11,025 bases of DNA, from positions 1 to 11,025 of the forward strand of contig JAZGFI010000002.1 in the NCBI GenBank assembly GCA_036479435.1, given 5' to 3'. The notes under the pieces were generated by a model. It was not told the DNA's origin. It did not search any database and saw only the letters and a list, made by a program, of their open reading frames with translations. Shown here in pieces: positions 1 to 10,916 of the stretch (positions within the stretch are counted from its first letter, which is position 1; each line of letters begins with the position of its first letter). Made by a program: the position numbers and the translations under genes. The stretch is from Planctomycetota bacterium. GTDB taxonomy: Bacteria > Planctomycetota > GCA-002687715 > DRQF01.

Positions 1-1622
1 TCTACGAAACCGGGCACGGCCCGGTGAGGATGCGCGCGGCTTGGAACATCGAGAAAAAAGGACGCCAACAAAGCGTCGTGATCACCTCGATTCCCTATCA
101 GGTCAAAAAGCAAGAACTCGTCGCCAAAATCCGCGATCTCGCCCTCGACAAAAAAGTCCCGCAGATTATCGATGTGCGGGACGAATCGACCAGCGACGTC
201 CGCATGGTGCTGGATCTTAGTTCAGGCTCTGACGCCGACATGGTGATGGCCTTTTTATTCAAGCTCACCGATCTCGCTTGCAACTTCAACTTCAATATGA
301 CCGGCTTAGTCCCGATGCGCGGCACCGACATTGCGGCGCCGCGGCAGCTCGATTTGAAGACCATGCTGCAGGTCTTTTTGGACTTTCGCTTCGAAGTCGT
401 CACCAAGCGTTTTGAGTACGAGCTTCGCCAACTCGAACGACGGATTCACATCCTCGACGGTTTCAACAAGATCTTTAACGACCTCGACGCGGCGATTCGA
501 ATCATCCGCGACTCGAAGGGCAAAAAGGACGCCGCCAATGGTCTTGTCGCGTACTTCATGCTCGACGAGATCCAGGTCAACGCCATTTTGGAGATGATGC
601 TCTATCGGATCGCGACCTTAGAGATCAACCGCATCTTGGATGAGCGGCGTGAAAAACGCGCCCGCGCCAAAGAGATTGGTTCGATCCTCAGTTCAGAGAC
701 GAAGCGTTGGACGATCATCCGCAAAGAGCTCGAAGAGCTGAAAAAAGAGTTCGGAGAGGCCCGTCGCAGTCACATCATCGAGCCCAACTCTGAATCTGAG
801 GTCGAGGTAAGCGCCGACGACTTCATCGTCGAAGAAGATCAATTCGTCATCTTGTCCGAAGGTGGTTGGCTCAAACGCGTCGGTTCGGCAAAGAGCGTCG
901 ATAAGATCCCCGTCAAAAAGGGCGACCATTTGGTAGGCGTGGTCGCCGGAAGCACCCGACACTCAGTGGTCTTCTTTTCGAACTTGGGCACGGCCTACAC
1001 CGCGCGCATTCACGACATCCCGGCGAGTCGCGGCTACGGCGATCCCATCCAAAAGATGTTCCGCTTCAAAGACGGCGAGAAAGTCGTCGCGATGTATTCG
1101 CTCGACCCCAGGGCGATCGGTGACATCTCGATTCCCAAAAACGCCAACAACTGCCCCGACGTCCACACGATTGCGGTCACTTCCAACGGCTACGGCCTCC
1201 GCTTCGGCTTGAGCGGATTCGTCGAACCCTCGACGCGGGTCGGCCGCAAGTTCGCACGCTTGAAAGCGGGCGCCGAGATCATCGGCGTCTACACCATCAA
1301 CGGCGAGGAGACCCTCATCACGGTTAGCGAACAGGCCCGGGCCTTGCTCTGCCCCGCCGCCGAAGTGAACTACTTAGAAGGGCCCGGCCAGGGCGTCTAC
1401 GTGCTGAAAGTAGCTGCCGACGATCGCGTCATCGGAGCGACTGTCAGCAAAAGGGAACACTTGGGCCTCACCGTCTACACCGCGAATGACACGCCGCACA
1501 ACATCAATGCGCGGCGTTACAAGATCACCGGCCGCGGCGGCAAAGGCTTTCAGATCATCAAACGGGGCCAGCTCAAGCGCGTGAGCAGCCCCGAACTCGA
1601 AATCCCGGTACTCAAGGGCTGA
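1..1622 (+). CDS. parC: Type IIA DNA topoisomerase subunit A (ParC/GyrA family, topoisomerase IV-like), 5'-truncated by the window edge
   Basis: The frame is open from position 3 (YETGHGPVRMRA, matching the family motif YETGxG), so the ORF-track start at 24 is not the real start. Motifs present: ITSIPYQV, DVRDES, FLDFR, 'ERRIHILDG', 'QVNAILEMMLYRI'. The C-terminal beta-pinwheel has about 5 blades, no QRRGGKG GyrA-box in the first blade and no acidic tail, which favours ParC over GyrA. Confidence 0.9.
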   Translation, partial: YETGHGPVRMRAAWNIEKKGRQQSVVITSIPYQVKKQELVAKIRDLALDKKVPQIIDVRDESTSDVRMVLDLSSGSDADMVMAFLFKLTDLACNFNFNMTGLVPMRGTDIAAPRQLDLKTMLQVFLDFRFEVVTKRFEYELRQLERRIHILDGFNKIFNDLDAAIRIIRDSKGKKDAANGLVAYFMLDEIQVNAILEMMLYRIATLEINRILDERREKRARAKEIGSILSSETKRWTIIRKELEELKKEFGEARRSHIIEPNSESEVEVSADDFIVEEDQFVILSEGGWLKRVGSAKSVDKIPVKKGDHLVGVVAGSTRHSVVFFSNLGTAYTARIHDIPASRGYGDPIQKMFRFKDGEKVVAMYSLDPRAIGDISIPKNANNCPDVHTIAVTSNGYGLRFGLSGFVEPSTRVGRKFARLKAGAEIIGVYTINGEETLITVSEQARALLCPAAEVNYLEGPGQGVYVLKVAADDRVIGATVSKREHLGLTVYTANDTPHNINARRYKITGRGGKGFQIIKRGQLKRVSSPELEIPVLKG

Positions 1623-1626
1623 TTCC

Positions 1627-3534
1627 ATGGCCACCAATTACACCGCCAAAGACATCCAGGTATTAGAGGGGCTCGAGCCCGTCCGCAAGCGCCCCGCCAT
1701 GTACATCGGTGGCGTCGACCTAAAATCGCTTCATCATTTGTTGACCGAAGTCTTGGACAACTCGATCGACGAAGTCATCAACGGTCATGCGTCGGCGATC
1801 AAGGTGATCTTAGACGCCGACGGTTGCGGTATCACGGTGGTCGACAACGGCCGCGGCATCCCCGTCGACATGCACCCCAAGCACAAAAAGTCCGCGCTTG
1901 AGATCATCATGGCGACGCTGCACGCCGGTGGAAAATTCGAAGGCAAAAACTACGTCCACTCGGGCGGCTTGCACGGCGTAGGTATCTCCGTCGTCAACGC
2001 GCTCTCGAAAAGTCTGACCGCGACGGTGCGCCGCGATGGCTACACCTACGAGATGACCTTTGCCCGCGGCAAGACGACTTCGAAACTAAAGCGCGCGAAA
2101 AGCACCACCCGCGGCACCGGAACGCGCATTCACTTTCGCCCCGATGACCAGATCTTCCCTCGCGTTCGCTTTGAGCCCTCGGGCATTCGCGAGTTGCTTG
2201 ACGCCAAGTCCTACCTTCATGGCGGATTGAAGATCATCTTCGAGGACAAAGTCAACGGCAGCAAAGAAGAGCTCTACAACCCCGGCGGCCTAAAGGCCTT
2301 CCTTGAAAAGACCATCAACGACCGCAACCGCAAGCCGACTAACGACGCGGTGTATCACATCGAAAACGCCAAATCGCCGAAGCTCGAGGCGGTCTTACAG
2401 TGGACCGACGAAACTTCGGAAGCGATCGCCTCTTATGTGAACGGGGTCCGCACGCCGATGGGCGGCACGCACGAGAGCGGGTTCAAAGCTGCGATCACCA
2501 AGGCACTCAGAAACTACATCAGCACGCACAAGCTCACGCCCAAAGGGGTCACGATCGCAACCGAGGATATCCGCGAGGGCATGACCGGCATCTTGTCGAT
2601 TTACATCGCCGAACCGCAGTTCCAAGGCCAGACCAAAGATCGGCTGAACAACCCCGAGGTGACCCCTGAGATCACCGGCTTAGTGAGTTCACACTTCGAA
2701 TCCTGGCTCAACGCAAGTCGCAGCGTCGGTGACTCAATCGTCTACCGCATTGTTTTAGCGTCGAAGGCCCGAGCGGCCTCGCGGGCCGCGGCCAAAGAGG
2801 TCAAGAAAAACTCCAAGCCCATGAGTCGTTTGCGGCTACCTGAAAAGCTCGCGGACTGTTCCGATCGCAAGCCCGAAAACTGCGAAGTTTTCATCGTGGA
2901 GGGAGACTCCGCCGGTGGTTCCGCCAAGCAGGGAAGGAACCGTAAGACTCAAGCCATCTTGCCCCTCAAAGGTAAGATCCTGAACACCTACGACGCCGCG
3001 CTCAGCAAAGTCGTCGCCAACCAAGAGATCTCAAACCTCTTACAATCATTAGGCTGCGGCATCGGCAAGTCCTTCGACATCCGCGGCCTGCGTTACAACA
3101 AGGTCATCATCTTGACCGATGCAGACTCTGACGGTCACCACATCGCAACCTTGTTACTAACCCTGTTTTTCCGCCACCTTCCCGGCCTCATCCAGGGCGG
3201 CCACATCTATTTGGGCCAACCCCCGCTCTACAAAATCCGCATCGGCAAAGAGGTCCACTGGGTCCTCGACGACTACGAAAAAGAAGAGCTCTTGGCGAAA
3301 GTGAAGGGCCGCGCCAAGCCCGAAATCACCCGCTTCAAGGGCCTGGGCGAAATGTCCGCCAAAGAACTCTCCGATACCACCCTCGACCCCAAAAAGCGCA
3401 CCTTGCTCCAGGTCCGCGTCGACAACCCCCTCGACACCGACAAGGTCCTCCAAGAGATGATGGGCAAAGACCCCAGCCCTCGCTTCAAGTTGGTCATGGA
3501 ACGCTTCGCCGAAGCCGACTCCCTCGATCTATAG
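1627..3534 (+). CDS. parE: Type IIA DNA topoisomerase subunit B (ParE/GyrB family, topoisomerase IV-like), 635 aa
   Basis: GHKL ATPase motifs: EGLEPVRKRPAMYIG, EVLDNSIDE, DNGRGIP, HAGGKF, SGGLHGVGISVVNALS. TOPRIM motifs: EGDSAGGSAKQGR, PLKGK, DADSDG. Tail motif: RFKGLGEM. EGLEPVR, GISVVN and DADSDG are ParE-like variants, and there is no long E. coli-GyrB-type insertion. The gene starts 4 nt after the subunit A stop. Confidence 0.92.
   Translation: MATNYTAKDIQVLEGLEPVRKRPAMYIGGVDLKSLHHLLTEVLDNSIDEVINGHASAIKVILDADGCGITVVDNGRGIPVDMHPKHKKSALEIIMATLHAGGKFEGKNYVHSGGLHGVGISVVNALSKSLTATVRRDGYTYEMTFARGKTTSKLKRAKSTTRGTGTRIHFRPDDQIFPRVRFEPSGIRELLDAKSYLHGGLKIIFEDKVNGSKEELYNPGGLKAFLEKTINDRNRKPTNDAVYHIENAKSPKLEAVLQWTDETSEAIASYVNGVRTPMGGTHESGFKAAITKALRNYISTHKLTPKGVTIATEDIREGMTGILSIYIAEPQFQGQTKDRLNNPEVTPEITGLVSSHFESWLNASRSVGDSIVYRIVLASKARAASRAAAKEVKKNSKPMSRLRLPEKLADCSDRKPENCEVFIVEGDSAGGSAKQGRNRKTQAILPLKGKILNTYDAALSKVVANQEISNLLQSLGCGIGKSFDIRGLRYNKVIILTDADSDGHHIATLLLTLFFRHLPGLIQGGHIYLGQPPLYKIRIGKEVHWVLDDYEKEELLAKVKGRAKPEITRFKGLGEMSAKELSDTTLDPKKRTLLQVRVDNPLDTDKVLQEMMGKDPSPRFKLVMERFAEADSLDL
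3352..3534 (+). repeat. Direct repeat copy 1 (183 bp): the 3' end of the intact topoisomerase B gene
   Basis: Aligns without gaps to 7708-7890 at 176/183 identity (manual codon-by-codon comparison). Confidence 0.99.
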
Positions 3535-3689
3535 GCCCCATAATCGAGGCTACCCGCCATCCTGTTCAAGACTTGAGGCGAGGTCTACTCGCCGTTTGCC
3601 GATGACCTGCAAACGACGGCAACGTGCTCTGTCGCTGCTGTGCTCCCAAGATTGGCATCCAACTCCAGGATAGGAATCGCCAGCTTCTC

Positions 3690-3710
3690 TATTGAGAATG
3701 ACTCTCAATA
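3690..3710. promoter_or_regulatory. Fur-family operator-like palindrome TATTGAGAAT-G-ACTCTCAATA
   Basis: A 10-1-10 inverted repeat with 9/10 matching arms. Its core TGAGAATgAcTCTCA matches the Fur 7-1-7 type motif TGAGAATnATTCTCA with one mismatch. It is an AT-rich island in GC-rich DNA, 44 nt upstream of the likely start codon. Confidence 0.72.
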
Positions 3711-3720
3711 TCATTAACTT
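3692..3720 (+). promoter_or_regulatory. Putative sigma70-type promoter for the Kelch gene
   Basis: -35 TTGAGA (3692-3697), 17-nt spacer, -10 TAACTT (3715-3720). It overlaps the Fur-like box, and a GGAG Shine-Dalgarno follows at 3744-3747. Confidence 0.5.
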
Positions 3721-3754
3721 GACGGGCGTCACCTCGGACTCACGGAGAAATCGA

Positions 3755-5764
3755 ATGCCCTTGTTAACTGGCCCCTCACGAAACGGGAGAGCGGTTTGGA
3801 AGCTCGCCATGGTCGTGCTTTGCCTTTTTTGGACGCCAAATCTGTCCTCAGCTCAATCAATACCCTCGGCTCAGCTTGCCGAGACGAAAGGCTTCTTGCT
3901 GCCCACGGCAATCGCCAGTTTTGGGGCGGCGGTCTTGGAAGACCATCTTTATGTATTTGGTGGGCACACCGGTGAAGCCCACGACCACTCCTACGAAACT
4001 CTGAGCCACTTCTTTGGCCGTCGCCGTAGCGATGGCTCTGGAGAATGGGAGCTCTTACCGGGAGGAAAGGCGCTGCAGAGCGCTTCTTTGGTTGCCGCCG
4101 ACGGCCAGCTCTACCGGATTGGCGGCATGACCGCGCTCAATGCGGATTCAGAAGATGAGGATCTCCACTCGGTGGCGAGTGCCAGCCGCTTCGACCCCAA
4201 GTTGAACCGTTGGTTTCCGATGCCGGACTTACCGAAAGCCCGCTCATCCCACGACGTGGTGGTGATCGGGTCCAAGATCTACGTAATCGGCGGTTGGACC
4301 TTGTCGGGTGATGATGCCGGTAAGTGGATCGACTCCGCCTTAGTGCTCAACCTGAAAGCTGCCTATCCAAAGTGGCAAGAGATCGCCGTGCCCTTTTCGC
4401 GACGGGCTCTGGCCGCTGCTGCCTGGCAAGGAGAGCTCTACGCAATCGGCGGTCTCAATGAGATAGGAAAGCCCTCACGACGGGTTTATATTTTCGACAT
4501 CAAAAAACAGCAGTGGCGTAGTGGGCCCGAACTACCGTCAATGGGTTTCGGCGCTTCCGCTTTCTCCACCAAAACTGGTCTTTACACCAGTCTGATGAGC
4601 GGCGAACTCTACCGGCTGAGCGATGACAAGAAATCTTGGGTTGCTATCCGACGCCTAGCGATTCCGAGGTTCTTTCATCGCTTGCTCCCAAGAGCTGACG
4701 GCAAGCTCCTCATCGCGGGTGGGGCCAGTCGTCTGGGCCACCTGCGAAGCGTTGAGATCATCGGTCCTGAAGCAAAAACCAAAATCACGGCGACTGGCTT
4801 CAAACTGACATGGCCCGGGCGCGCCAAAAACCGCCAGGCCATCGGATTCCTCGGCCCTGAACTCATCATTGCGGGCGGAAACGACAGCCTTGAGCAACAC
4901 GATTTTGACGCCGAGAACTTCGTTGACGAAGTTTGGAAGCTAAGTCTCGGCGACATGACGACGGTCGCTGGCCGTTCTATACCTGAACCCCGTCAAAGCC
5001 AAACCTTCATTGCGCACAAGAACAGCCAAGATAACGGCCTTCTTCTCGTCGGGGGTTTCGGACACGACGGCAAGAGCGAACGAAGCTGGAAAGACATTTG
5101 GTCGTTTCGAGAAGAAGACCATCGTTTTAATCAGTACTCAAAAGTGTTGCCTTTGCCCTTGACCCAATTCGGCGCGACAAGACATGGCGACGATCTCTTC
5201 ATCGTGGCCGGTCTGGACTATGACCCTGAACGCGAAGAAGGAGATGAATTCCGCCATCAAAGCCAGGTTTGGAAACTCTCCTTGGCGAAGGACGGGGAAT
5301 TTAAGGCCTTTGGCGAAAAGCTCCCCGTGGGCCGCCGAGCGTTCGGTGGTACTCGCATCGACAACAAGTACTACATCTTCGGTGGGATGACGAAGGACTT
5401 TGGCCTGACGAAGGATGCACTGTGCCTGAATCTCGACGATGGAAAATGGACCGAGATCCCAAGCTCTACCCCGCGCATTTCCCCGCGAGCGGTCGCCGTC
5501 GACGGCAAGATCTGGATTTTGGGTGGTACTTCGCCGAATGAGAACGGTAAAGGGTTTTCGGCGAATGAAAGCGTCGAGGTTTTTGATCCGGCCACCAAAC
5601 GATGGAGTGTGCTCGCGCAAAGCCTGCCTTTCTCCATGCGCCACACCCATGTCCTTCCCTTTTCGGGCCGCGTCTTGCTGCTCTCGACCCACAACAAGAG
5701 CCAATCGCTCGAACTTGTGATCTTGACCCCTCAACCTAGCCTTTCGCCCACCCAGACCCGGTGA
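3755..5764 (+). CDS. Secreted Kelch-repeat protein, about 12 repeats (two 6-bladed beta-propellers), 669 aa
   Basis: Start moved from the ORF-track TTG at 3692 (which lies inside the operator) to ATG 3755, preceded by GGAG with a 7-nt spacer. Signal-peptide-like N-terminus (..KLAMVVLCLFWTPNLSSA|Q). Kelch signatures LYVFGG, LYRIGG, IYVIGG, LYAIGG, LLIAGG, LIIAGG, LLLVGG, YYIFGG, IWILGG with downstream 'FDP...W' motifs. Confidence 0.88.
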   Translation: MPLLTGPSRNGRAVWKLAMVVLCLFWTPNLSSAQSIPSAQLAETKGFLLPTAIASFGAAVLEDHLYVFGGHTGEAHDHSYETLSHFFGRRRSDGSGEWELLPGGKALQSASLVAADGQLYRIGGMTALNADSEDEDLHSVASASRFDPKLNRWFPMPDLPKARSSHDVVVIGSKIYVIGGWTLSGDDAGKWIDSALVLNLKAAYPKWQEIAVPFSRRALAAAAWQGELYAIGGLNEIGKPSRRVYIFDIKKQQWRSGPELPSMGFGASAFSTKTGLYTSLMSGELYRLSDDKKSWVAIRRLAIPRFFHRLLPRADGKLLIAGGASRLGHLRSVEIIGPEAKTKITATGFKLTWPGRAKNRQAIGFLGPELIIAGGNDSLEQHDFDAENFVDEVWKLSLGDMTTVAGRSIPEPRQSQTFIAHKNSQDNGLLLVGGFGHDGKSERSWKDIWSFREEDHRFNQYSKVLPLPLTQFGATRHGDDLFIVAGLDYDPEREEGDEFRHQSQVWKLSLAKDGEFKAFGEKLPVGRRAFGGTRIDNKYYIFGGMTKDFGLTKDALCLNLDDGKWTEIPSSTPRISPRAVAVDGKIWILGGTSPNENGKGFSANESVEVFDPATKRWSVLAQSLPFSMRHTHVLPFSGRVLLLSTHNKSQSLELVILTPQPSLSPTQTR

Positions 5765-5841
5765 GCAGAGCGCTATTGCGCACGCTATTTCATCATTCGC
5801 TTGCCAGAGCCAATTGATTCTTTGCTACAGGAACTCTTCAC

Positions 5842-7476
5842 ATGAATCTAGCCAAAACTCTTTTTGCGGCGGCTACCGCGATCTTGATCCTTTCTTCGCT
5901 GGCCATCAGTCAAATACAGTTCTTGCCCAGCGCCGCGGTTACCACTGGGATCACGGTGCCCGCAAATCCAGCCGACAACGACGCGAGAGGGCTCGAAGTT
6001 GCTGATGTCAATCTCGACGGAAACCTCGATATCGTGGTTTGCGATTCCTTCGTTGATGAGATCGCCGTGCTCTTGGGAGACGGGCTCGGTGCCTTCGTGC
6101 CATTGACAGCCATCACATCTACGGGTGGCCTCCGGGATATCGAGGTCCTCGACGTCAATGGCGACCTGCTGCCGGACCTCGTGATTTCACGCCAAAGCGA
6201 CGACATGGTCGAAGTGTTTCTGGGTGACGGGACCGGGGGGTTCGTCAGTTCGCAGGTCCTAGGCCTTGGAGCTTCGACCGGTCCCCGCGCGCTCGGGTCA
6301 GCCGACTTCGACCTCGACGGCGATCGCGACGTGGTGGTGGCGCTCTTTGCGACCTCACAGTTCATGCTGCTGAGAAACGACTCCGGGATCTTCACACCCA
6401 TTGGTCCCTTCAACACTCTCGGGAGCAACGCTTATGACCTTACGGTGGGGGATCTAAACGGTGATTTTCGGCCCGATGTCATCGTCTCCAACAGCTCGTT
6501 CTCGGGTGGCCCAACCGACAATGTAGCCGTTTTCTTGAACGACAACGCCGGAGGATTCTTGCCCCCGACCACCACGGCGAACGGGTTTTTCAACTCGGGA
6601 GTCATCGTCGCCGACATCAACCTTGACTCCTTTCCGGACGTCGTGGCTTCAAACTTCGTCAACACCACCGGCAACCTGTTCCCGATGCTCGGCGACGGAA
6701 CCGGTGCGCTCACCACGGGCACGCCCGGATCCGGAGGCGTGCACATCAATGGCATTCGCTCAGGCGACTTCGATTTGGACGGCGACATCGACATCGTGGC
6801 CTACGACGTCGGGACCGGAAGCGGTCAGGCGTTCGAGAACAATGGCGGGATGCTTGTCCCCGTTCAAACCCTGCCCACCGTGACCATTCCCGGTGCCACC
6901 GCCACCGGCGACCTTAACGGTGACGGAAGCGTCGACATCGTGATCACGAACCGCGAGGGCGGAAGCATCTCGATCTACTTGAACCAAAACTTCAGCCCGA
7001 GCCTTCCAGACACCTGTGCACAGAGTCATGTTCCCGATGGATTCGGCGGAGTCGAAGATGTGTTGCTCATTCAAGGCAGCACCGGTGGCGCCGACCGCCG
7101 AGTCGATCTCGCTTTGTCGCAGATAGCGGTCTTGGATTTGGTTCAACCGTCTGTCAACGGAGTTCCGTCCTCCTTTTTGATCTGGGGTCAGGTGTTCACG
7201 CCAAGTCAGCAGCTGAGCGTCTTTGTCTTGCCCTTTGGTTTGGGTACGACCTGTCTGATTCCCTCCCAAGCCGACCCTTTGAACCAAAGCCTCATCTTGA
7301 TCGCCAACAACTTCGGTGGCAACGACCCCATGGCCTTGGTGCCCTCGTTCCTGGCTCCCTTTGCGTTGGGGTTCACCGCAACTGGAGTTGACTCGACCAT
7401 CATCCTTCAGGGCTTGATCTCCCTTTCGACCACCGAGGTTGCGATCACCAACGCGATCATGGTTCGTACGTCATAG
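5842..7476 (+). CDS. Secreted FG-GAP/VCBS-repeat protein (7 Ca-binding-type repeats) with an uncharacterised ~155-aa C-terminal domain, 544 aa
   Basis: Signal peptide MNLAKTLFAAATAILILSSLAIS|Q. Seven DxNxDGxxD-type repeats: DVNLDGNLD, DVNGDLLPD, DFDLDGDRD, DLNGDFRPD, DINLDSFPD, DFDLDGDID, DLNGDGSVD. Also 'LLGDG.G.F' motifs. AGGA at 5829-5832 is a possible RBS. Confidence 0.9.
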   Translation: MNLAKTLFAAATAILILSSLAISQIQFLPSAAVTTGITVPANPADNDARGLEVADVNLDGNLDIVVCDSFVDEIAVLLGDGLGAFVPLTAITSTGGLRDIEVLDVNGDLLPDLVISRQSDDMVEVFLGDGTGGFVSSQVLGLGASTGPRALGSADFDLDGDRDVVVALFATSQFMLLRNDSGIFTPIGPFNTLGSNAYDLTVGDLNGDFRPDVIVSNSSFSGGPTDNVAVFLNDNAGGFLPPTTTANGFFNSGVIVADINLDSFPDVVASNFVNTTGNLFPMLGDGTGALTTGTPGSGGVHINGIRSGDFDLDGDIDIVAYDVGTGSGQAFENNGGMLVPVQTLPTVTIPGATATGDLNGDGSVDIVITNREGGSISIYLNQNFSPSLPDTCAQSHVPDGFGGVEDVLLIQGSTGGADRRVDLALSQIAVLDLVQPSVNGVPSSFLIWGQVFTPSQQLSVFVLPFGLGTTCLIPSQADPLNQSLILIANNFGGNDPMALVPSFLAPFALGFTATGVDSTIILQGLISLSTTEVAITNAIMVRTS

Positions 7477-7505
7477 GACTTTCTTGTCGATCGACTTGAA
7501 GGTCG

Positions 7506-7551
7506 AGCTGCGGTTCCTACCGGAAAATGGGAACCGTAGCTTTTCTGTTTT
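7506..7551 (+). terminator. Intrinsic terminator after the FG-GAP gene
   Basis: Stem AGCTGCGGTTCC (7506-7517) pairs with GGAACCGTAGCT (7530-7541) with one G-U pair, followed by TTTCTGTTTT. Confidence 0.8.
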
Positions 7552-7707
7552 GAGTCTTCACTAGTCGGACTGCCTTCGGTGGCCCGATTGACATGAGTTC
7601 ATCCCATGTCGGCGGCGGTTGGCATTTGCGCATGGATGGCGCTTTGCGCTCATGACCACTGCGTTTTTGGTTCGCACTGAGTAGGCACTGCGTTATCAGT
7701 TGGCCTG

Positions 7708-7890
7708 ATGTCGGCCAAAGAACTGTCCGATACCACCCTCGACCCCAAAAAGCGCACCTTGCTCCAGGTCCGCGTCGACAACCCCCTCGATACCGACAAG
7801 GTCCTCCAAGAAATGATGGGCAAAGACCCCAGCCCTCGCTTCAAGTTGGTCATGGAACGCTCCGCCGAAGCCGACTCCCTCGATCTCTAA
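7708..7890 (+). pseudogene. Direct repeat copy 2: displaced 3' fragment of the topoisomerase B gene (intact 60-codon mini-ORF, B-subunit C-terminal tail)
   Basis: 59/60 aa identical to the last 60 aa of 1627-3534 (one F->S change). It begins at the in-frame ATG of the KGLGEM motif and ends in TAA. No clear Shine-Dalgarno upstream. Confidence 0.9.
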
Positions 7891-8030: not shown

Positions 8031-9143
8031 ATGCAGCGCTCTCGCACCGCCCTCTTCGTCCTGATCGCCCTGGCGATTGTGCCCGTCATTTTTGTGGCCT
8101 GTGGTTCCACAAAGAAGAGAAATCCGCAGCCGGTCTACGAAGACCCGGGTTACGAGGAGCCCCGGCCACGGGGCAACCGCCAGCCAATTCCGCGCCAAGG
8201 TCCAAGAAATCTCAGGCAACGCCGCCTGGCCGAACTCGAAAACCTCGACCGCCAGGGTTGGCTTGACCGCGACACCTACGAGCTCGGTGCACAACTCATC
8301 GGATCGAGAGCCAAAGACCTGCGCCCCTACGACCGCGACTTGCGGGCCGTCTTTGTGGCCCTGACCGATGGGCAACTACATCCGCGCGACTTGACGCGGG
8401 AATTGGATCGCGTCGATCAGGCCTACCGGCCACGCGATCGCCGACCGCGCGTGCCGGTTGTTGATGATCCCAGACCAAATCGCACCCATCCCAATTCAAA
8501 TCGCAATCCCAATCCAAATCGTGGCCGACCCCATGCCCGCGGCCCCGGTGCCAAAAAGCCAAAAGCAACGAGACCGCCTCGCGGCAAGCCCGGCCGAAAG
8601 CCCAATGCCAAGCAAGGCCGGGGTCAGTTCATTGCGGACTTAGCGCGTTTGCGCCAGCGCGGCGACATCACGCCGGAACAGTTTAGAGAAGGCCGGGAAC
8701 TGTCCCTCAAGACTCCCGCCTCACGCACGGCGCAGGAGAATCGGCGCTACGCCCTCTACCGCGCGGTCGCCGCCGGCAACTTGCCGCCAGCGCGCCTCGG
8801 GGGCGGCAACCGCCCCCGACCCGTTGATCGATCCAACCCCAGCGGGCGACGTCCTCCCAAGCAAAAGCCCACTGCGAGGCCAAAACCGCAAAAAAATACG
8901 CCGCCAAGAAAACCCGGGGTGGCGAGTTTGACCCCCAAGCAACGGGTATCCCAGCTCGATGCGCTCTACCGGGACGGGTCGCTGAAGAAAAAGCACTACC
9001 GGCATGGGAGAAATCTGCTGGCTCGGTCGGAGGCCAACATGCAGCTGTATGAGCGCACCTTAAGAGCGGTGTACGTTGACCTTGCGGAAGGTCGACTGGC
9101 TCCCGGAGACTTGGTCGCCGCCATCGACGCAGCGCTGAAATAG
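8031..9143 (+). CDS. Putative lipoprotein with three SHOCT-like helical repeats and Pro/Arg/Lys-rich linkers, 370 aa
   Basis: GAGGT RBS at 8020-8024. Basic N-terminus, hydrophobic stretch and lipobox-like FVA|C (Cys24). Three internal repeats at about aa 64-130, 199-256 and 304-370. Confidence 0.8.
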   Translation: MQRSRTALFVLIALAIVPVIFVACGSTKKRNPQPVYEDPGYEEPRPRGNRQPIPRQGPRNLRQRRLAELENLDRQGWLDRDTYELGAQLIGSRAKDLRPYDRDLRAVFVALTDGQLHPRDLTRELDRVDQAYRPRDRRPRVPVVDDPRPNRTHPNSNRNPNPNRGRPHARGPGAKKPKATRPPRGKPGRKPNAKQGRGQFIADLARLRQRGDITPEQFREGRELSLKTPASRTAQENRRYALYRAVAAGNLPPARLGGGNRPRPVDRSNPSGRRPPKQKPTARPKPQKNTPPRKPGVASLTPKQRVSQLDALYRDGSLKKKHYRHGRNLLARSEANMQLYERTLRAVYVDLAEGRLAPGDLVAAIDAALK

Positions 9144-9194
9144 CCTCCTTAGGGTCGATCCAACTCCGGCAAGCTCCGCCAAGTTCCCCACGAC

Positions 9195-10620: not shown

Positions 10621-10916
10621 TCCAAACCGCCCCGCCCCAACCTGCAACCAACACAGCTCACCAAGGCCAAGTCCTCCGCACCATCATTCCGACAACCCTC
10701 CAAATCCACCAAAACGCCTGATTCCACCCGCTCCCCCCAAACTCCGTTATCCAATCCACATATCCCGGACCATTCCTGCCGCACCCACCTCCAACTCACT
10801 CCGTCGAGTCGACTTAAGCGCCCCACCAATTCCAAGCCCCCCAAATATCTTCCCTAGCTACCCCGCTTTCCCGTACTATCCAGTTCCATCGACTTAGAGT
10901 TATACAGGCAGAATGC

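Follow-up and report, generated by a model that had tools for sequence, protein, structure and literature searches.

Islands of the att-flanked type that integrate at 3' gene ends (tRNA, tmRNA, guaA and prfC types) bring a replacement end for the target gene, the original end being displaced beyond the cargo, and they rely on a fixed crossover site and an integrase. A different kind of event, called insertion with long target duplication, was reportedly described by Nobusato et al. in 2000. For the latter, Table 3 of Furuta, Abe and Kobayashi 2010 (PMC2853133) collects small inserts bounded by long imperfect direct repeats of 24-423 bp, with no integrase in the cases given there. In that paper, the repeats often span a start or stop codon and the target gene stays intact, most cases come from competent species, and the published inserts carry restriction-modification genes, DNA breakage by which was proposed as the driver. 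In a Campylobacter case from the same source, the repeats match at 195 of 208 positions and the right-hand copy is identical to the empty site.

Gene-end duplications have also been obtained experimentally. In E. coli, trimmed and recircularised DNA produced duplications of 109-950 bp by a single crossover (Amarir-Bouhram, Goin and Petit 2011, PMC3240628); duplication rather than deletion was found in 56 of 60 clones, 14 being sequenced, and the events, obtained with conjugated plasmid DNA, were rare (about 6e-9 per recipient). By contrast, homology-facilitated illegitimate recombination is described in the same text as normally leaving a deletion and not a duplicated anchor. Finally, Johnston et al. 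2013 (PMC3784515) report transformation-triggered merodiploids of 100-900 kb bordered by partial IS861 copies.

The DNA analysed here, called the window, is the entire contig C2 (11,025 nucleotides) of a planctomycete genome assembly of 5.47 Mb in 299 contigs. It begins with a parC-like topoisomerase A subunit gene (3..1622, + strand; Pfam PF00521 and PF03989, NCBIfam), whose 5' part is cut off by the contig start, followed by an intact gene for a parE-like topoisomerase B subunit of 635 aa (1627..3534, + strand; Pfam, NCBIfam). The protein scored above the NCBIfam subfamily cut-off and below both parE equivalog cut-offs. Since a parC-like gene precedes it, and contig C235 carries a separate, longer gyrB together with gyrA, we infer that this type IIA topoisomerase B subunit is probably ParE. 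The last 183 bp of the gene (3352-3534) recur on the same strand at 7708-7890, as the initial annotation had noticed, with 176 of 183 positions identical and differences at repeat positions 6, 18, 84, 105, 155, 180 and 183. The start-to-start distance is 4,356 bp and 4,173 bp separate the copies. BLASTN of the 183-bp unit against the 5.47-Mb assembly, a check proposed in that annotation, found these two copies and no third (E = 5e-81). Copy 1 (3352..3534, + strand) forms the working last 61 codons of parE and has a derived Phe at repeat position 155, whereas copy 2 (7708..7890, + strand) is an orphan parE tail with the ancestral Ser at this position and an intact 60-codon frame from an in-frame ATG.

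Between the copies lie genes for a Kelch-repeat beta-propeller protein (3755..5764, + strand; Pfam; start at 3755 or 3809) and for an FG-GAP beta-propeller protein (5842..7476, + strand; Pfam, tblastn), both probably exported, as judged by eye from their signal peptides. The nearest homologues of the Kelch protein are 46% identical, and the C-terminal domain of the FG-GAP protein is common to several paralogues in the genome, as detected by tblastn. Upstream of the Kelch gene, a 17-bp palindrome (3692..3708; 2 matches versus 0.01 expected) is a probable operator, which we take to resemble a Fur box; 12 sites similar to it were found in the genome, two of them adjoining a ferritin-like gene. 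The operon ends at a strong intrinsic terminator (7505..7542, + strand; 15-pair stem and T tail), in a region that folds at z = -4.6, and no Rfam match was found. Codon and GC3 scores did not mark the cargo as foreign, the Kelch gene ranking in the 22nd and the FG-GAP gene in the 62nd percentile. The initial description of the insert as holding only an operator, two secreted beta-propeller genes and a terminator is correct regarding the Kelch and FG-GAP domains and the terminator; the word "only" had to be dropped, since positions 7607-7704 are the left end of an IS21-family element.

In several aspects the locus resembles insertion with long target duplication: the repeat is longer than 30 bp and unique (183 bp, 2 copies), the insert is shorter than 20 kb (4,173 bp between the copies), there are no mobility genes, and the repeat lies at the stop codon. 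The repeat length, which had been regarded as unusual, falls within the ranges of 24-423 bp and 109-950 bp given in the published material (PMC2853133, PMC3240628). Unlike that system, the parE locus has an IS fragment at its joint, an essential target and almost solely silent differences between the copies, and its cargo contains neither restriction-modification genes nor a nuclease. No restriction or modification gene was found in the insert, just the Kelch and FG-GAP genes. As restriction-modification cargo is one of the criteria in PMC2853133, the parE-locus insert is a variant, and not a member, of this class.

The IS remnant (7607..7704, + strand) is a truncated left end of 98 bp, identical at 72-78 of 98 positions to three other copies. 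Its tip points toward the cargo, and its interior is cut after 98 bp and fused to copy 2, the remnant stopping 3 bases before it. The left end has 8 other matches in the genome, one of them with a 6-bp target duplication in a CRISPR repeat; a complete sister copy on contig C227 is 921 bp long, with imperfect inverted ends of about 70 bp and a 6-bp target duplication. By sequence comparison we classify the element as IS21-like, because homologues of its small ORF directly precede istA-istB in two of three annotated plasmid loci and a "transposase" in the third; one of them also has a similar end. No assembled copy in this genome combines these ends with istAB, and two homologues of the small ORF from the planctomycete phylum have no istAB neighbour in their 1.5-kb flanks. 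One of these two homologues lies, by eye, near a tyrosine-recombinase-like ORF. Scans of the genome_contigs collection for the IS family gave no match, and the Atlas gave unnamed clusters only.

The contig C2 carries no transposase or recombinase gene, the 98-bp IS end being non-coding, in agreement with the absence of a recombinase in or near the cargo reported initially. Mobilisation catalysed by the IS21 transposase, making the joint or moving the cargo in trans, is quite improbable in our opinion. The family has many recent copies, as indicated by the 8 other left-end matches and by the copy with a 6-bp target duplication, and at a further locus of the genome (contig C121), as well as in genome G173, the second copy is likewise bordered by mobile-element sequence. 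Against this, the joint lies 98 bp inside the element and not at its tip, therefore transposition did not produce it; at the left border of the cargo no IS end was found; target duplications of this kind span a few bases and not 183; and 5 of the 7 inter-repeat regions examined lacked any IS sequence.

The arrangement could also be artefactual, either as an assembly chimera of two strains, which the initial annotation had named as an outcome against its own reading, or as an empty chromosome together with a free 4.36-kb circle. Contigs were examined from four of the ten listed sequencing runs (X1, X4, X6 and X8, with X2, X3, X5 and X7 left out). In X1 and X6, which come from different studies, a single contig covers 3476-7755 with 0 differences and crosses both cargo joints, with depths of 81 against 65 and 73 in the flanks for X1, and of 30 against 27 and 29 for X6; as depth is no copy number, these values were read only as no gross loss or amplification. 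X1 was flagged as a possible source, yet at position 3156 it departs from the window sequence with full depth. The longest identical run within the repeat is 65 bp, and the presence of exact 127-bp terminal overlaps on 8 contigs points to an assembler word longer than this run. Furthermore, 4 contigs, of up to 3.99 Mb, are recorded as carrying the 60-aa product of copy 2, and a 3,989,566-bp contig has entries for each of ParE, the two cargo proteins, the 60-aa tail and the downstream-encoded lipoprotein, this being a record of presence and not of order. The unit also lacks a replication gene. In favour of an artefact, two parC alleles occur together at about half depth in X1 and X6, and no listed Logan contig covers a whole repeat copy. 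With this evidence we consider either artefact barely credible. The run contigs, which are a weak test, gave no sign of excision or amplification of the cargo.

The differences between the copies inform about their past. Six of the seven are silent, one of them in the stop codon, and the seventh is the missense change at repeat position 155, where the working copy 1 encodes Phe and copy 2 encodes Ser, the residue found in all 8 family ParE proteins (dS 0.165, dN 0.007). These six silent differences, and the family Ser kept by copy 2, indicate that the two tails were each under coding constraint as parts of working genes, which is most easily explained if they evolved in two strains. The ParE of another assembly shows one further residue difference inside the repeat, and codon preference did not locate the crossover point. 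An in-place tandem duplication of the parE region followed by trimming, after which copy 2 would decay or else persist as a 60-aa peptide of the ParE tail, would account for copy 2 starting exactly at an in-frame ATG, with an intact 60-codon frame and no derived missense change. Nevertheless, in-place duplication with neutral decay of copy 2 was rejected at P = 0.002-0.04, depending on the model, no ribosome-binding site before copy 2 was evident by eye, and the two other orphan 3' copies examined for their first codon do not start at ATG. Such a duplication also leaves unexplained the arrival of the Kelch gene, which is absent from the 8 family genomes, so we regard it as very improbable. That the orphan 60-aa tail is translated and tunes topoisomerase IV seems to us equally far-fetched.

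The polarity of the event could be read from the genes downstream. A repeat lipoprotein-like gene (8031..9143, + strand) lies outside the insert, and its sole homologue among 8 family genomes directly follows parE in the sister genus G003, an order that on this comparison would represent the empty layout. This places copy 2 on the resident side and agrees with the proposed displacement of the original gene end to the far side of the cargo; an insertion with replacement of the gene end is thus supported. We infer that the 3' end in copy 1 is the donor's and that in copy 2 the resident's original. The Kelch gene was detected in 0 of 8 family genomes (81-92% complete) at E<=1e-20. The empty-site comparison rests on the gene order in the sister genus, no same-species empty allele being present among the run contigs examined. 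Among the pieces listed, run X8 shows a second parE allele, differing at 5 positions within 3027-3393, and another sequence beyond 9160, but its depth is uneven and the allele is not counted as empty; run X4 (share 0.06) gave three short low-depth pieces only; and the metagenome scan found no close relative (55-63% identity). Clustered patches of alleles differing by 4-8% were found in parC in two runs, showing that the population includes relatives diverged to a suitable degree.

The anatomy of the locus recalls T6SS/Rhs displacement arrays attributed to homology-facilitated illegitimate recombination (Kirchberger et al. 2017, PMC5361080), in that these also combine one homologous anchor and one illegitimate joint, with resident DNA moved downstream. 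At parE, in contrast, the anchor is duplicated, the old neighbour gene is kept and there is no deletion. The explanation that we favour, and consider probable, is a homology-anchored import with insertion-duplication in which no integrase takes part. The donor would be a related strain, about 4% different in this region, with the Kelch and FG-GAP genes and the IS21 element behind its parE. A donor fragment of 4.36 kb, with one end 183 bp ahead of the parE stop and the other 98 bp into the IS, would have entered the cell, and the joining of its ends would have created the novel IS|parE joint and a circle. One RecA crossover within the common 183 bp could then have integrated this circle with no need for an integrase, leaving parE whole with a donor-derived end and the old end moved 4.36 kb downstream. 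In a non-circular variant, included in the same explanation, capture of the displaced resident strand during strand invasion would give the same product. Among the four routes initially suggested, Campbell integration of a circle and homology-anchored uptake from a relative are therefore jointly the best explanation.

The genome encodes recA, comEC and dprA, although comEC and dprA also match in 10-11 of 14 control genomes, hence their presence is no proof of competence; Ku was not found in the genome. The E. coli insertion-duplications are alike in the gene-end duplication and in the lack of an integrase, and were RecA-dependent; they differ in having used a laboratory plasmid with identical homology, conjugated to E. 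coli, whereas the parE case is natural and 4% diverged (PMC3240628). The IS861 merodiploids share with it the uptake of DNA and a partial IS leading to a duplication that leaves an essential gene intact, and differ in their size of 100-900 kb and in that the repeats are the IS copies themselves (PMC3784515).

The IS fragment at the joint fits equally well with the deletion of a larger island. A decayed site-specific island would have been an integrase-bearing element with a replacement parE tail, from which a later deletion, beginning within the IS21 element, took away the integrase together with the IS body and possibly some of the displaced tail. A replacement tail from another strain would give the same silent divergence, the truncated IS borders directly on copy 2, at the very point where a deletion of this kind would stop, and the genome does contain ordinary att-flanked islands, such as a tRNA island with an integrase on contig C90, while contig C17 has a tmRNA-like end repeat that lacks an integrase. 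The parE locus itself is like these islands in having a replacement gene end with the original displaced beyond the cargo, and unlike them in that no tyrosine or serine recombinase is present on C2 and no reused crossover position was found. Neither 15 class genomes that have parE nor 80 metagenome parE loci (35 reaching at least 4.4 kb downstream) showed a second ParE tail, and 80 viral loci contained no close orphan parE tail (33-52% identity); in none of these sets was an integrase-bearing parE element detected. Weak second matches were seen at metagenome loci L115 and L116, and short frames in 4 of the 80 viral loci, two of these at locus starts.

Partial duplicates of the parE tail do occur, with other boundaries. 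At locus L044, 41 bp of the parE tail and the downstream hairpin region are duplicated 1.2 kb behind parE; at L050 a duplicate of at least 77 bp lies at the contig end; and in genome G173 a 384-bp duplicate, 99% identical, is found on a separate contig with an end consistent with an interrupted insert. These duplicates begin at about -350, -105 and -60 from the stop, in distant taxa, which makes them a weak test of a shared site. A phylum survey of 300 other genomes, in which the 3 with three matches and one more genome were checked, yielded at least 1 candidate. In the literature searched, which covered few subscription journals, no element targeting parE was found, nor this route in planctomycetes.

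The genome itself was also screened for nearby same-strand partial copies, starting from 3,463 ORFs of 180 aa or more and yielding 20 rows, of which 12 were dropped as paralogues, contig-end overlaps, IS-internal or antisense. This left 8 orphan terminal copies. In six of them a 3' end recurs downstream of its gene (parE, uracil-DNA glycosylase, a phosphatase-like lipoprotein, DUF218, an unknown gene and a Fic gene), in two, lexA and an IrrE-like gene, a 5' end recurs upstream, and 0 copies are internal; toxin-antitoxin pairs, YhcG and a methionine synthase cluster are among the cargos. The genome has 13 tyrosine and 3 serine recombinase matches, none of which falls on a contig that holds one of the 8 cases. 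The uracil-DNA glycosylase case shows a silent bias of 6:0 in its 3' part, and the empty gene order was found in 5 of 5 relatives examined. A clear silent bias was seen in only 2 analysed cases and not in the phosphatase-like (5:4), DUF218 (3:8) and C217 (6:11) cases; in older copies it would have been lost by decay.

Because orphan terminal copies exist for seven other genes of the genome as well, with no recombinase nearby, parE is no special target: the events that survive are solely those that restore the gene, and their sequences are unrelated. The proposal of a unit targeting parE is not supported, as the same layout occurs at these seven unrelated genes, and neither is that of a capture hotspot at its 3' end, based on the downstream genes, as the lipoprotein gene is an old parE neighbour common to the sister genus. 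A decayed island would require that eight unrelated targets each lost their own integrase; together with the absence of an integrase-bearing parE element from the loci examined, the different boundaries of the other parE-tail duplicates and the lack of a parE-targeting element in the literature searched, this makes it unlikely.

As a single locus, the parE insert is ordinary, and at the same time it is a clean natural case in which an essential gene was the site of gene gain without an integrase. With it, insertion with long target duplication is extended to nuclease-free cargo, which weakens restriction enzymes as the proposed driver, and island finders that require an integrase overlook such inserts. 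We tentatively suggest, as a possibility rather than an expectation, that tail-swap capture is a routine, enzyme-free way for this lineage and others to acquire accessory genes, by which fragments from relatives, often broken at or inside transposon sequence, would be end-joined and integrated at any gene terminus independently of restriction enzymes. If true, silent-only divergence between the copies would record the donor strain and date each capture.

Topoisomerase B gene ends are also found in duplicate in other genomes. In G173, a distant genome of the planctomycete phylum, the 3' end of a topoisomerase B gene is copied over 384 bp with 99% identity (C37 end and C26:74096-74479; loci L239 and L240), and the copy sits immediately behind an ORF that looks transposase-like by eye and has no Pfam match. 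At another locus (L044:10630-11962), a decayed partial copy of the 3' end of parE, together with the hairpin that follows it, lies 1.2 kb behind the gene, so that one lipoprotein-like gene is enclosed by the duplicate.

Within the genome that carries the window (G000), the 3' half of the uracil-DNA glycosylase gene is present again 6 kb downstream (C117:65012-71784, L127), decayed by a stop codon and an internal deletion, with a porin-like gene, a transglutaminase, TusA-domain genes and a methionine synthase as cargo. All five relatives examined at this locus showed the empty order, without the cargo. Partial duplicates of gene ends or intergenic sequence also flank small cargos at C154:23743-25670 (PIN-HTH pair), C206:73157-75408 (RES-HTH pair), C217:8589-14452 (unknown genes), C224:811-3125 (YhcG, before lexA) and C121:10129-12512 (AbiEi-AbiEii pair). 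At C17:13256-19128, a 60-bp repeat, which we take to resemble a tmRNA 3' end, encloses genes for Tex and for a kinase, with no integrase present.

Regarding mobile elements in G000, a CRISPR array carries a non-autonomous IS21-like element of 921 bp inserted in its last repeat (C227:12258-13178, L133), with a target duplication of 6 bp. Near the contig end, a 150-bp stretch (window 10756-10902) has 79% similarity to C63:3780-3928, a tandemly repeated region adjoining a tyrosine recombinase gene; the stretch may mark where a further mobile element borders the window.

The window contig begins within parC, for which two alleles were detected at 98-284 and 650-836, with 8 and 15 clustered differences; both were found together at around half depth each in runs from two studies. 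In run X8, one contig departs from the window at 9160 (region 9144-9160 and beyond), so a second strain has different DNA behind the lipoprotein gene. The lipoprotein itself (8031-9143) contains a short helical domain in three copies, without a match in Pfam or NCBIfam, and its homologue in the sister-genus genome G003 has more copies.

Upstream of the Kelch gene there is a palindrome (3692-3708), presumably Fur-box-like. Similar sites precede a gene encoding a ferritin-like protein and an efflux operon, so the cargo genes may be responsive to iron or to a different metal.
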